A DNA stretch of 64,000 bases from a phage. The stretch lies in NCBI GenBank assembly GCA_024614665.1, contig GCA_024614665.1_4861.1, one strand, 5' to 3'. A program made the translations under genes and the position numbers. The notes beneath the pieces were generated by a model that did no database searches, was not told where the DNA came from, and saw nothing but the letters and a program-made list of their open reading frames with translations. This document shows, in pieces, positions 1,201-19,418 of the stretch (position 1 is its first letter; each line of letters opens with the position of its first letter).

Positions 1201-1559
1201 TATACAGCAGGTGTGCTAAGACACCCTCCTTATCTCTCGACAAGGCACAGACTATATCTTCACCATAGCTTACGCCTTAGGTGTTCTCCCACTTCGAAGT
1301 CCACTAGGACCCCTACTCGCATTTCAGCGATAGTCGTTGAACATTCCTCTCACGAGGCTTCGCTGCTGATTACCCATTATCACAACCCTTAGCACTATTG
1401 TTTAGCATAGGTCATCGTATCTGTTGTTTCAGACTTTCGTCCCCATTTCTGGTAGATACGCTTTAGGGTTTCCCAGCAATTCAGGAGAATACACATCGGA
1501 GGTTTCCCGTCCGATGGGGCTCTTTTCGAACCGTTAGCCATCTTTATCACACGGTCAGA
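1201..1559 (-). ncRNA. group I self-splicing intron (no homing-endonuclease ORF); boundaries about +/-25 nt
   Basis: Minus strand carries the canonical core elements in canonical order: P-like GAATTGCTGGGAAACC (1466..1481), Q-like AATCAGCAGCG (1361..1371), R-like GTTCAACGACTA (1331..1342), S-like AAGATATAGTC (1250..1260); interrupts beta-prime homology between region C and DFDGDQ; in-frame stops at 1395..1397 and 1216..1218 inside it. Confidence 0.6.
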
Positions 1560-16329: not shown

Positions 16330-17151
16330 TCAGCGAAGGGCGTCGGTAGTCTTACCGTGAGAGTTAACCACGTAGACTTCGTCGCCTTTATAAAACAGTT
16401 CGTACAACGCACCGGTACTGATCTGGTTATCAGGATCGTATCCAGATTCTTCTTCGATGCACATTGCGCCAATCAGTTCATCGACTGACCGGTCGCCAGG
16501 GCGAGCGCCTTTTAAAACAGTGACAACGCACTCACCATTAACCCATTGTGAGTGTTCCTGGACATCAGTGAACTCGATAGATGGACCAGGCTCTAATTTG
16601 GCTTGTTGCAGTTCTTCCTGAGTGTAGACAATAATCGCCATGTCGCTATCAGGAGACGGCTTGTACCAACCTAATTTTTCTAAGGGCGTACCGAAACCAA
16701 CGAGTTCGCCGCAGATACTATCCATGGCTTCCGGTTCACATAAATTTGTCGCCAGTACCAAGATAGCGTTGCCCTTATTATCTAGCACGTAGCTAATAAA
16801 CTCGCGTGCGTTGCAGTTAAACACCTCGACCGTTTCCAAATCGGGGATAATAAGGTTGGGGAAAAGCTGCCTCAGGTATACGTGAGCATAAAGCTGACTT
16901 GTAGACAGGCGCTGCTGCCAGCTACAATAATCAGACAAATGCATGGTGTTCGGATCAGGCACATCAGGGGCAACGCGTTTTAACCCCGGATTAAGGGCTA
17001 ACTTTTCATCACCGACAACGATGTCGAAGCGCTCGTTCTCGAGCATTTTTAATGCCTCGCGGAATACACGAGACTTACGGTCACCGATACGAACCTTTTC
17101 ATGTTCGGTAATGATACGGTCACCATCAATCACACGTTTAACTGTAAACAT
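16330..17151 (-). CDS. hypothetical protein (273 aa; start moved to internal ATG)
   Basis: ORF track ORF 16330..17523 has a 124-codon Pro/Gly/Arg-rich N-terminal extension with non-protein-like composition that abuts the tRNA-like elements; ATG at 17151..17149 (MFTVKRVIDG) has AAGGA RBS. Confidence 0.5.
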   Translation of the reverse strand: MFTVKRVIDGDRIITEHEKVRIGDRKSRVFREALKMLENERFDIVVGDEKLALNPGLKRVAPDVPDPNTMHLSDYCSWQQRLSTSQLYAHVYLRQLFPNLIIPDLETVEVFNCNAREFISYVLDNKGNAILVLATNLCEPEAMDSICGELVGFGTPLEKLGWYKPSPDSDMAIIVYTQEELQQAKLEPGPSIEFTDVQEHSQWVNGECVVTVLKGARPGDRSVDELIGAMCIEEESGYDPDNQISTGALYELFYKGDEVYVVNSHGKTTDALR

Positions 17152-17526
17152 GTTGCTTTCCTTCTTACTACTATTGCTGCTTCTATTGGTAGTCCACGAC
17201 ATATCCCTCGTGGGTGGGTTCGGTGTGTAACCGAATAAGTTTTTCTGTTCCCAGGGCAACGCACCAGGCTTAATTGATTTAGTTGGCAAACCAGGAACAG
17301 AAAAGGGTGAACAGACCAGGGCGCGAGGTGGCTCTGTAAGGATGCGTAAGAAAAACCCAAACGGCCCTGGTCTGTAATTTGGCCCGAAGTCACCGTGTCG
17401 GAGGACAGCCCATGCAGGTAGGCGGCAATGGACACGGTGACCGCGGAAGTGGTTCGTGTTACCCTTGACCCGTGTGTGGATACGCGTCTTATTTCGAATG
17501 CCTTCGGGATAAGGATAACACAAATG

Positions 17527-17606
17527 GGGCGAGCAAACGGACGGATTCGAACCGTCGAAATATCCGATTATGAGTCGGGTGTTAATTCCTCTAACTTCGC
17601 TGCTCT
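17527..17606 (-). pseudogene. tRNA-like element (degenerate): T-arm GACGG-TTCGAAT-CCGTC and anticodon-arm-like CCGA-CUCAUAA-UCGG (CAU), but no pairable acceptor stem
   Basis: Hand folding of minus strand; anticodon loop identical to elongator tRNA-Met loops; acceptor stem cannot be formed and the variable region is 6 nt. Confidence 0.35.
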
Positions 17607-17675
17607 TGCTTTGACCGGTCTCGAACCGGCGACCTTCCTCAAAGAGGTTGCTCTACCTACCTGAGCTACAAAGCC
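17607..17675 (-). pseudogene. tRNA-like element (degenerate): canonical acceptor, D-arm and T-arm but anticodon arm shortened by about 4 nt
   Basis: Minus strand GGCTTTG-TA-GCTCAGGTAGGTAGAGC...GCCGG-TTCGAGA-CCGGT-CAAAGCA; only 13 nt where a 17-nt anticodon arm is expected; G1-A72 mismatch. Confidence 0.35.
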
Positions 17676-18450
17676 ATTGTAAGGTGCCGGTGCATCCCGG
17701 CGTGTGTTAGTGCAGTCAGCTCCCTCGGGCCTATCTGCGGCAACACGTTGCCCGGCGCACCGACATATACCACAGTAACCTCGTAAAGTCACTCTGGTAT
17801 TGTTCGTTGCATATTACTAAGTTATCACGTAAACGATTTCACCACTTCCAATAATTAACCTAAATTCATTTCTGAATGCAGGTGATGGACTTCTTCTTCT
17901 GAGCCTGGCCATAAGGTCAGGTCTTAGCGTCTCCAAGCACCACCCGCTATCACGTACATTCGTGGCGTACCGGCCGTATGAGGTACCGCGCCTACGGTGA
18001 CACACAGTCACCCTAACACTGGGAACTCAATCCCATTTGATTATCAGATTGTGGATTTACAGGCGTAGCGTAGCGGCTTAATGGGCCGGTGCTTGCCTGT
18101 CCCCTAGGGACGGTTGTCGTGGAGACGCCAGTCTGTAAGTGGGGCCCTTACGGGAAAACCCATCGCCTGTAAACCAAACATGACTGAATACCCAGAACCG
18201 GACGTTTGAAATCAACATCCTGATGTACTGGAGTATTTCATGCATAAACGTGTCTCGTATCGAATGAGGTTATGACCGGTCAGATACCCAGCATCCTGTA
18301 CAAGCGACCTGGTGCTTTGTGTACCTGGCTGCTACGGATTTATCGGTTTACCGTAGGTCTGAGCTGCTACCGGCTCATGCGGGACATCAACCCGCACAAT
18401 CTGAGTAAGTATCATGGCTCGAATAGGGTTAGTGGGCCGAAGCCCACTGT

Positions 18451-18693
18451 TTAGCCAGCATTGAACGATTCATGAACGACGGTCCCAGCAGGATAGTGCG
18501 TAGTGCCGATAAGAGTAACGGTCAGGGTAAGCCCTTCATCCCAGCGCTCTTTCGGTAACCAGCGGCAGTCCATCCAATGACCACAGTCGGGAGGAATTGC
18601 ACACGCGGCTTGCTCCGTAGGAGCCGCCACGATTATGGAATCAAATTCATCGTACCCGATATCGTCAGTTCGTTCTAGCAAGTACAAATTCAT
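18451..18693 (-). CDS. hypothetical protein (80 aa)
   Basis: ORF track; AGGAG RBS 6 nt upstream of ATG. Confidence 0.45.
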   Translation of the reverse strand: MNLYLLERTDDIGYDEFDSIIVAAPTEQAACAIPPDCGHWMDCRWLPKERWDEGLTLTVTLIGTTHYPAGTVVHESFNAG

Positions 18694-18757
18694 GTTGTTC
18701 TCCTACAGTTGACAAATCTGTGTCTTCTGTGTTGAACCTGAATTCGTTGGCTAAATG

Positions 18758-18833
18758 TGGCGGGGGCACGAGGTTTCGAACCTCGAACCTTCGGTTTTGG
18801 AGACCGGTGCGCTACCAATTGCGCCATACCCCC
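18758..18833 (-). tRNA. tRNA-Trp (anticodon CCA), 76 nt, CCA encoded
   Basis: Hand-folded cloverleaf on minus strand: acceptor GGGGGTA/TGCCCCC, D-arm GCGC-AATTGGTA-GCGC, anticodon arm CCGGT-CUCCAAA-ACCGA (as in E. coli tRNA-Trp except a C27-A43 mismatch), T-arm CGAGG-TTCGAAA-CCTCG, discriminator G, CCA. Confidence 0.8.
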
Positions 18834-18926
18834 AGAATTCTTTAAACGTGTTTATACGGATGCGCTACCCCGTTATCGCAGGCGATTGATGGGGTCAAGC
18901 TTGCGTGCTTCTGACTCCCGCATGAT

Positions 18927-19418
18927 TCACCTCCGTAGTTCGTAAGTGCTAATCTCACCACCGGTGTAGATATCGCATTCGGACGCAATCTCAACAGCAC
19001 GAACCGCATTCGCGCCCATCTTCATCGCACCCAACGCGTACTCGTAACCGCTTCCGGTTGCCAGAGGTGGTGTGGCTTCACTCCACCACAACGACACGTC
19101 GTCTTCACGCTTCCCACCGACTATCGCTTTCCCTGAGGCCAGAAGCATCAGGAAAGTAAAATCCATCTTCGCAGGTAACTGCGAGCTTTGTGTTAACCCC
19201 TTGTAGCCGGGTCTCAAGCGGATAGTTTCCAGCAGGGCCAATTGTCCTGTGATGTCGCCGCTTACCCCGAACACCACAATTCGTTCACCGGTAATCCACC
19301 ACTCCTCGTCAGGAGGACAGACGAATAACTTCTGGGTATTCAGGTTGCAGATATTCGACCCACGGGTTAACTGGCCGTCAGCAGCTAAGACTTTTCCATC
19401 GAACGCTATCGTGGTCAT
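18927..19418 (-). CDS. HslV-like Ntn-hydrolase peptidase (proteasome beta-type, 163 aa)
   Basis: N-terminal MTTIAFDGKVLAADGQ matches HslV [20 protein letters not shown] with Thr directly after Met; C-terminal LATGSGYEYALGAMK...ASECDIYTGGEISTYEL matches HslV IAIGSGGPYAQAAARA...AGDICIYTNHFHTIEEL; no HslU-like ATPase in window. Confidence 0.6.
   Translation of the reverse strand: MTTIAFDGKVLAADGQLTRGSNICNLNTQKLFVCPPDEEWWITGERIVVFGVSGDITGQLALLETIRLRPGYKGLTQSSQLPAKMDFTFLMLLASGKAIVGGKREDDVSLWWSEATPPLATGSGYEYALGAMKMGANAVRAVEIASECDIYTGGEISTYELRR

Follow-up and report, generated by a model that had tools for sequence, protein, structure and literature searches.

A conserved pair of abutting, non-canonical tRNA-like elements at the tRNA locus of SPN3US-like jumbo phages: a candidate dimeric tRNA precursor

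The 64,000-nucleotide (nt) stretch of phage DNA analysed here (contig GCA_024614665.1_4861.1, hereafter the window, to which all coordinates refer unless another locus is named) carries two tandem elements resembling transfer RNAs (tRNAs), termed E1 and E2, both on the minus strand. The locus region is 98-100% identical to the Salmonella phages SaP7, SPN3US and SEGD1, the source phage is of the SPN3US-like jumbo type (genus Seoulvirus, genomes of ~240 kb), and the pair is present in all ~34 SPN3US-like records. With moderate confidence, we read E1 and E2 as the non-canonical pair within an ancestral tRNA operon of jumbo phages; they would be co-transcribed as a dimeric precursor and yield an atypical tRNA(CAU) from E2 and a non-decoding tRNA-like RNA from E1.

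Both elements match the Rfam tRNA model (RF00005, gathering score 29) slightly above its threshold, i.e. E1 at 17606-17675 with 38.1 bits (E=1.9e-4) and E2 at 17532-17603 with 30.6 bits (E=0.022; both E-values computed over the whole window), compared with 45-76 bits for the other tRNAs of related clusters. A first-pass annotation of the same DNA had proposed two tandem tRNA-like elements with canonical T-arms, one with an anticodon arm about 4 nt short and the other with a tRNA-Met-like loop (CUCAUAA), and in all these points it was right: the elements abut directly, the shortened arm is that of E1, where the Rfam alignment deletes four model positions, and the Met-like loop is that of E2 (Table 1). 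Its placement of the pair next to a tRNA-Trp has to be corrected, as that gene lies 1,083 nt upstream of E1 on the same strand, with an open reading frame (ORF) of 80 amino acids (aa) and ~775 nt intervening. Between the two, Rfam models matched no additional tRNA-like remnant when 17000-19200 was scanned at E<=10, and the opposite-strand matches to Plastid-ycf2 and psbI-rps4 were discarded as far sub-threshold reverse-complement tRNA artefacts. The only call of ARAGORN under default settings in the window is this tRNA-Trp(CCA). The relaxed ARAGORN modes that had been recommended did call both elements at 80% thresholds (-ps80), E1 as tRNA-Lys(ttt) and E2 as tRNA-Met(cat), albeit with poor folds, while -ps60 produced many spurious calls, so that these modes say little beyond the sub-threshold status of the pair. 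With blastn at distant sensitivity, no similarity to the locus was found outside the SPN3US/Erwinia phage group.

Within this group, Machinavirus, Erskinevirus and the Seoulvirus members SPAsTU and pEa_SNUABM_29 (pEa_29) harbour up to 11 tRNAs at the same locus (8-11 in the related genera). The 3' end of their cluster invariably consists of the E1 homologue, the E2 homologue and tRNA-Asn(gtt), and the downstream gene is the same as in the window. The alignment of SPAsTU with the window is continuous to 17682, is then interrupted by 1,007 extra nt in SPAsTU containing the tRNAs Tyr, Glu, Asp, Ile and Gln, all missing from the window, and resumes at the E1 leader. Phage MET_P1 (MET_P1_082_240) retains tRNA-Asn directly 3' of E2. 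These comparisons therefore indicate that the layout of the window arose by deletions which stripped canonical tRNAs from both sides and left E1-E2, i.e. SPN3US-like phages would have retained the pair after losing the five upstream tRNAs and the downstream tRNA-Asn. Phages of the Proteus phage 7/SPLA5c type possess ~258 extra nt upstream of E1, between two ACAATGG repeats, which the window lacks. The two elements also reassort as modules, since the metagenomic contig L146 joins an E1 of the pEa_6 type to an E2 of the pSal-04 type, and E1 is absent from phage Asesino.

E1 combines a conserved acceptor/T minihelix with a body that is exchanged between lineages. For the minihelix, the acceptor strands and T-arm of 14 distinct homologues were spliced and aligned over 12 pairs, 11 of which form in 14/14 sequences; double-sided changes affect 9/12 pairs and eight different acceptor helices occur, so that 100% of the paired cells are kept leaving aside G1·A72, or 91.7% counting all 12 pairs. 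The G1·A72 juxtaposition itself is invariant and unpaired in 14/14 sequences, and neither A73 nor the G after it varies. The body between acceptor and T-arm falls into types A-F: the SPN3US type has a standard D-arm and a hairpin of 4 base pairs (bp) with a 3-nt loop, to which SPAsTU adds a 43-nt insertion; L086, pSal-SNUABM-04 and pEa_10/43 carry other hairpins; pEa_6 and L146 have a long class-II-like body; and pEa_8, ChrisDB, Caitlin, phiEaH2 and pEa_29 share a compact hairpin pair which itself covaries (CCCGG-UCGGU-CYGGG and UCGUC-loop-GACGA). A D-arm pattern search matched an unrelated tRNA-Trp. No E1 homologue of any body type has an anticodon loop of 7 nt in which position 33 is U and position 37 a purine, and, judged by its fold, E1 cannot decode. 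Together with selection acting only on the acceptor/T minihelix, this points to a processing module and/or a released, stable tRNA-like RNA, and a role as processing signal is plausible.

A conserved minihelix below a lineage-specific anticodon domain is also what might be expected if E1, possibly along with further irregular cloverleaf RNAs from this cluster, were an independent trans-acting small RNA, for instance one serving as decoy or sponge towards host enzymes that act on tRNAs or defence nucleases that cleave them, and having an anticodon domain that diversifies in an arms race. Even SPN3US-like phages that are nearly identical to one another differ in the triloop, which may be UUU, UUC or AUC, and at position 27, where either A or G occurs (in the window, A27·A43). 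The reassortment of E1 and E2 types would fit as well, phage tRNAs with anticodon-loop changes are known to counter tRNA-targeting defences (PMC10264068), and the tRNA region of phage T4 also encodes stable RNAs, i.e. RNAC and RNAD, whose roles are unknown (PMC3014915). However, an unconstrained, dispensable domain would likewise be expected to vary in its loops only, an RNA with a 3-nt loop resembles the substrate of an anticodon nuclease poorly, and there is no recognisable partner protein among the neighbouring genes, so that we hold a trans-acting E1, including the decoy example, to be rather improbable.

E2, by comparison, represents an atypical tRNA(CAU) and forms a cloverleaf in its minimum-free-energy fold. 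The earlier statement that its acceptor stem cannot pair proved wrong, since the strands GAGCAGCG and CGU(U)UGCUC form an 8-bp helix with one bulged U in this fold, the 5' strand beginning at 17605, two bases before the Rfam match, and the helix covaries across homologues. A total of 18 distinct E2 sequences were aligned to a cloverleaf with an 8-bp acceptor (22 pairs) and compared with 500 shuffles. In the family, 91.7% of cells are paired versus 80.8% after shuffling and 30-50% with slid partners, and 0/500 shuffles reach the observed values. Double-sided changes are seen in 13/22 pairs; in the acceptor, 6/8 pairs covary and the terminal G-C pair is invariant. From pairing and covariation we infer an 8-bp acceptor and, with the T-stem, an acceptor/T stack of 13 bp (8+5). 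The start position of E2 finds a counterpart in Asesino, where the ACAAU leader directly precedes the first G of E2, which opens the 8-bp helix. The window, pEa_29, L086 and Asesino all have the bulged U of the acceptor 3' strand; across the family, A or C but never U is found at position 8, and C27·A43 is invariant. Homologues of E2 score 31-48 bits in every genus, versus the 45-76 bits of the other cluster tRNAs. The window and MET_P1 versions of E2 differ at nine sites, comprising three compensatory pairs, two GC/GU switches, the bulge base and a tail base, and none of these is disruptive, which argues for continuing structural selection within the Seoulvirus clade.

In a Machinavirus subset (L008 1507-1603, L137 1508-1603, L139 1524-1618 and L140 1508-1603), E2 combines the CAU anticodon and 8-bp acceptor with a long variable arm. 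This arm, a covarying stem of 5-7 bp closed by a GGC triloop, occurs only in pEa_6, pEa_8, pEa_9 and ChrisDB, and the predicted fold is that of a class-II-like 8/5 tRNA(CAU).

The first-pass annotation had also pointed to a C27-A43 mismatch shared by the tRNA-Trp and E2, which the non-canonical marks of the Rfam alignments confirm. The exact anticodon stem-loop of E2, CCCGACTCATAATCGGAT, is found in at least 120 IMG/VR loci (63 distinct tRNA-sized sequences) from many phage types; ARAGORN by default calls a tRNA(cat) in 115 of these, and four of the five uncalled loci are jumbo-phage E2s. The mismatch thus belongs to the regular features of a tRNA(CAU) that is widespread in phages and is no defect, and the unusual part of E2, as folded here, is its backbone rather than its anticodon arm.

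The 3' ends set both elements further apart from their neighbours. Tabulating CCA ends and leaders for every ARAGORN-called tRNA in twelve related clusters, we found an encoded 3'-CCA in 81/81 canonical tRNAs but never in E1, which ends in ..GCAA followed by G, or in E2, which ends in ..GCC followed by C or U. Neither element has the canonical 7-bp acceptor with a paired 1:72 position, as E1 has G1·A72 and 6 bp and E2 has 8 bp with the bulged U, and of the two only E2 (CUCAUAA) has an anticodon loop of the regular 7 nt, U33 and purine 37 included. Hence E1 is not a canonical tRNA because of its anticodon loop, 1:72 position and missing CCA, and E2 is not one because of its acceptor length, the missing U8 and likewise the missing CCA. 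Wherever both occur, they abut without a spacer, and the minimum-free-energy fold of the E1-E2 dimer consists of two independent cloverleaf-like domains, the 8-bp acceptor and bulge of E2 included. The 5' junction of E1 reads ...CCUUACAAU followed by GGCUUUG, and spacers of the form CCA-AACAAU precede several tRNAs in related clusters. A long-range pairing between ACAAUGG 5' of E1 and CCAUUUGU 3' of E2 was considered and rejected, as it is not conserved in relatives.

We therefore favour, as a working model, a precursor that is matured by host enzymes. Co-transcription of E1 and E2 from the minus strand, as a spacer-less dimer, is suggested because all genes from 19418 down to 14199 lie on this strand and neither a sigma-70-like promoter nor a minus-strand terminator was found close to the pair. 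Two cuts by host ribonuclease P (RNase P) are predicted, one at ACAAU|G to generate the 5' end of E1 and one at ...GCAA|GAGC to separate the 3' end of E1 from the 5' end of E2. Trimming of the 3' ends by host exonucleases would follow, and the host CCA-adding enzyme would then complete them, steps needed because neither element encodes CCA. E2 would mature into a Met- or Ile2-type tRNA(CAU), to be charged as such, in which acceptor and T-stem form a 13-bp stack, position 8 is A rather than U and the anticodon stem contains C27·A43. RNase P and the CCA-adding enzyme would recognise the E1 minihelix with G1·A72 and A73, making E1 a cis-acting processing module and/or a stable tRNA-like RNA.

In the alternative of decaying tRNA genes, suggested at first, E1 and E2 would be neutral pseudogene relics of an eroding cluster, functionless in the phage of the window. 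They do descend from syntenic tRNA genes, as E2 orthologues are penultimate in the cluster and annotated as Met or Ile2(cat), and E1 types A-C have a standard D-arm; borderline tRNA scores, the lack of a default ARAGORN call for either element, the loss of all canonical neighbours, the missing anticodon loop of E1 and the lesions in some E2 alleles described below would all follow from such erosion. Simple decay nevertheless does not describe the pair, because both elements are equally non-canonical in genera with full clusters and their helices are kept by compensatory changes. Disruptive helix substitutions have not accumulated in either, with the exception of the E2 alleles of EC001, 1252 and Lh1B; the nine differences between the E2 of the window and of MET_P1 break no helix, all five variable E1 sites among SPN3US-like phages lie in the loop or in the 27·43 mismatch or change GC to GU, and the presence of the pair in every SPN3US-like record is not what erosion would predict. 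What stands of the earlier suggestion is thus that the pair is the remnant of a larger cluster and that a few E2 alleles are damaged; functionless relics we consider unlikely.

Several observations do weigh against the dimeric-precursor model itself. Two deletion events that merely missed E1-E2 would explain its retention, which alone is weak evidence of selection. The substitution density of E1 among close relatives (5/70 sites variable) is not below that of the flanks in a semi-global alignment, as neutral relics would also have it. The terminal G-C pair of E2 is invariant, so covariation does not fix its mature 5' end. In EC001, 1252 and Lh1B, E2 has an inserted base in the 3' strand of the T-stem and/or mismatches and loses the Rfam match, which means that E2 may be dispensable in these phages; the alleles look like chimeras of two intact alleles or early decay. 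Several relatives additionally carry a canonical tRNA(CAU) of 65-69 bits, so that E2 is not required there as the sole CAU decoder, and two such genes per relative fit one tRNA-Met and one tRNA-Ile2, in either assignment. Finally, the literature on SPN3US tRNAs, phage pseudo-tRNAs and tRNA-like cluster elements yielded no description of E1 or E2.

Directly 3' of E2, or of tRNA-Asn in relatives, follows a separable structured region (17388-17526) with 70-83% alignment identity across the three genera. It folds to -60.4 kcal/mol (z=-4.0), with a closing helix of 13-14 bp (GUGUUAUCC.../...GGGUAACAC) containing five covarying pairs and a long second hairpin after it, and has no Rfam match. An ORF running through it (16330..17523) was rejected as coding there, and the region is taken as non-coding because the upstream open extension of this ORF is not conserved, varying between 1 and 81 codons among relatives; it could be the 5' untranslated region of the downstream gene or another small RNA. 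In Salmonella phage 1252 (L133 1199-1738), a different sequence with a 540-nt coding sequence (CDS) directly follows E2 and replaces this conserved structure. Since E1, E2 and this region are contiguous in the window, with spacers of at most a few nt, and all three are conserved across genera, they might be domains of one larger functional RNA, a possibility which had likewise been raised. The parts occur separately, however: in MET_P1, SPAsTU and the other genera, E2 is followed by a canonical tRNA-Asn before the downstream element begins, Asesino does without E1, L146 pairs its E1 type with a different E2 subtype, and the dimer folds into two independent domains. A single larger RNA is thus very improbable.

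Further unusual tRNA-like elements were noticed in the clusters of relatives. One of ~80 nt and cloverleaf fold, termed EX, lies upstream of E1 in Proteus phage 7 (L002) and is also found at L006 1371-1457, L009 1091-1174 and L141 1318-1401; it has an acceptor GGGAGCG/CGUUCCC and three hairpins, with the T-loop-like GGAUUCGUACC in the middle arm and one arm closed by a GGAA tetraloop, is 83-95% conserved across Seoulvirus and Erskinevirus and is not called as a tRNA. EX is absent from the window, where it appears to have been deleted between the two ACAATGG repeats. In Erskinevirus (L142 1290-1409, L009 1360-1480 and L042), a 120-nt 'tRNA-Ile(aat)' with normal acceptor, D-arm and T-arm and ~50 extra nt in the anticodon/variable region lies just upstream of E1, and in pEa_29 (L141 ~1641-1750) a tRNA-like element of ~110 nt, with an acceptor GCUGUGU/ACACAGC, a T-arm and an encoded ACCA but uncalled by ARAGORN, follows tRNA-Asn. 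It is tempting to speculate, at a low level of confidence, that the SPN3US, Machinavirus and Erskinevirus phages carry an undescribed set of non-decoding cloverleaf RNAs (E1, EX, the 120-nt 'tRNA-Ile(aat)' and the CCA-less tRNA(CAU) with 8-bp acceptor), that this set might act as tRNA mimics in trans against host tRNA-directed enzymes or defence nucleases or reflect a phage-specific use of tRNAs with 13-bp stacks, and that E1-E2 would be its minimal core, which SPN3US-type phages cannot lose.

Known systems provide partial parallels for the dimeric precursor. Some dimeric tRNA precursors of T4 lack an encoded CCA and are matured by host 3' trimming and CCA addition. Like E1-E2, the T4 dimers and RNAC/RNAD lie inside a phage tRNA cluster with little or no spacer between units; the likeness is one of cluster layout, and blastn similarity is confined to the SPN3US/Erwinia phage group. 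Relative to the widespread phage tRNA(CAU), E2 shares the exact anticodon stem-loop of 17-18 nt including C27·A43, the T-loop and the overall cloverleaf, but differs in its eight acceptor bp (with the bulged U in the window), in A8 instead of U8 and in the CCA not being encoded. E1 follows the tRNA consensus of RF00005 in acceptor, D-arm and T-arm, but has a 3-nt loop in place of the anticodon loop, the G1·A72 mismatch and no encoded CCA.

With a conserved acceptor/T minihelix and a dispensable anticodon domain, E1 matches the pattern of plant mitochondrial t-elements, which define messenger RNA ends (PMC1920247), of MALAT1 mascRNA and of the viral tRNA-like RNAs of murine herpesvirus 68 (MHV68), where the minihelix is a handle for RNase P or RNase Z and the anticodon domain is degenerate. 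These systems are eukaryotic or organellar, whereas E1 is a phage element whose cleavage is predicted; as to mascRNA itself, the Rfam model has no match in the window and only sub-threshold matches on other tRNAs in relatives. The predicted 13-bp stack of E2 would recall the 8/5, 9/4 and 8/4 acceptor/T stacks of tRNA-Sec and allo-tRNAs (PMC7609411), as does the long variable arm of the Machinavirus subset. E2 differs from them by its CAU instead of UCA anticodon, a 4-bp D-arm with 7-nt loop and, in the window, a variable region of 6 nt, and identity as tRNA-Sec was rejected on the grounds of anticodon and variable region. YrlA (Y-RNA-like), known from Salmonella and certain phages, does not decode and contains an acceptor/T/D module resembling that of a tRNA. 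It shows some likeness to E1/E2, but was rejected as RF02553 has no match in 17000-19200 at E<=10, other tRNAs of relatives reach 23-29 bits against a gathering score of 69, and the Ro-binding helix is absent. Initiator tRNA-fMet was rejected as well: E1 shows G1·A72, G2-C71, C3-G70 and A73 but neither a CAU loop nor a GGG/CCC stem, and E2, although its anticodon is CAU, has a helix end that pairs and an anticodon stem of CCCGA.

Apart from an HslV-like peptidase, the proteins of the neighbouring genes have PHROGs of unknown function only, and none has a Pfam match. The downstream protein (16330-17151, minus strand, phrog_17697, unknown function) is 81.7% identical to those of SPN3US and SaP7 and 97.8% to those of SEGD1 and Proteus phage 7, whereas E1-E2 is 99-100% identical to SPN3US and SaP7, a contrast that indicates mosaic recombination around the locus; a search for related loci with this protein recovered SPN3US alone. 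Upstream, a non-coding block (17883-18095, minus strand) is 71-77% conserved with the sequence preceding the first cluster tRNA in Asesino, Stratton, Caitlin and L086 and may be a promoter or leader of the tRNA operon. The small ORF beside it (18078..18245) appears to match Asesino gp9, judging only from the overlap of the CDS with the blastn alignment. A 78-aa ORF on the plus strand (17428-17664), antisense to E1 and E2 and annotated in SPN3US and several relatives as hypothetical protein gp263, is probably a spurious gene call. Elsewhere in the window, a candidate group I catalytic intron (1228-1537, minus strand) matches the full length of RF00028 with 65.5 bits (E=2.2e-14).

Table 1. Elements of the E1-E2 locus and context features, in window coordinates
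Feature	Position	Strand	Remarks
ACAAU leader	17676..17680	minus	directly 5' of E1, U at -1; recurrent inter-tRNA spacer motif in the phage group
E1	17606..17675	minus	Rfam tRNA 38.1 bits; 4 anticodon-loop model positions deleted
E1 acceptor 5' strand	17675-17669	minus	GGCUUUG
E1 D-arm	17666-17650	minus	
E1 mini-hairpin	17647-17637	minus	CCUC-UUU-GAGG; triloop 17643-17641
E1 T-arm	17630-17614	minus	GCCGG-UUCGAGA-CCGGU; canonical
E1 acceptor 3' strand	17613-17608	minus	CAAAGC; unpaired A72 at 17607, A73 at 17606
E2	17528..17605	minus	Rfam tRNA 30.6 bits; cloverleaf in minimum-free-energy fold
E2 acceptor 5' strand	17605-17598	minus	GAGCAGCG; followed by A8 A9
E2 D-arm	17595-17581	minus	
E2 anticodon arm	17579-17563	minus	CCCGA-CUCAUAA-UCGGA; anticodon CAU 17572-17570; C27·A43
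E2 variable region	between anticodon arm and T-arm	minus	UAUUUC, 6 nt
E2 T-arm	17556-17540	minus	GACGG-UUCGAAU-CCGUC; canonical
E2 acceptor 3' strand	17539-17531	minus	CGU(U)UGCUC; then GCC 17530-17528, next base C rather than A
Structured non-coding region	17388..17526	minus	directly 3' of E2; in relatives 3' of tRNA-Asn; separable module
tRNA-Trp(CCA)	18758..18833	minus	canonical, GCCA encoded; ARAGORN; Rfam 65.6 bits; context, outside the E1-E2 pair

These results correct an inconsistent public annotation, in which E1 is labelled tRNA-OTHER in the SPN3US RefSeq entry, with an opposite-strand hypothetical protein spanning E1 and E2, the Proteus phage 7 record gives tRNA-Asp for E1 and tRNA-Ile for E2, E2 orthologues in Erwinia and Salmonella jumbo phages appear as tRNA-Met(cat) or Ile2(cat), and most records leave both elements unannotated. 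The usual explanations for tRNA genes in phages are codon supply or the evasion of tRNA-cleaving defences. The present case differs, in that one phage lineage dropped its ordinary tRNAs while keeping a fused pair, in which a tRNA-like RNA without anticodon loop is joined to an atypical tRNA(CAU), both shapes being maintained by compensatory evolution across three genera. Amber mutant collections of SPN3US exist and are useful for genetics (PMC5105663). If E1 and E2 are made and processed, they would make non-decoding mimicry of tRNAs, or the punctuation of transcripts by tRNA-like elements, accessible to study in a nucleus-forming jumbo phage.

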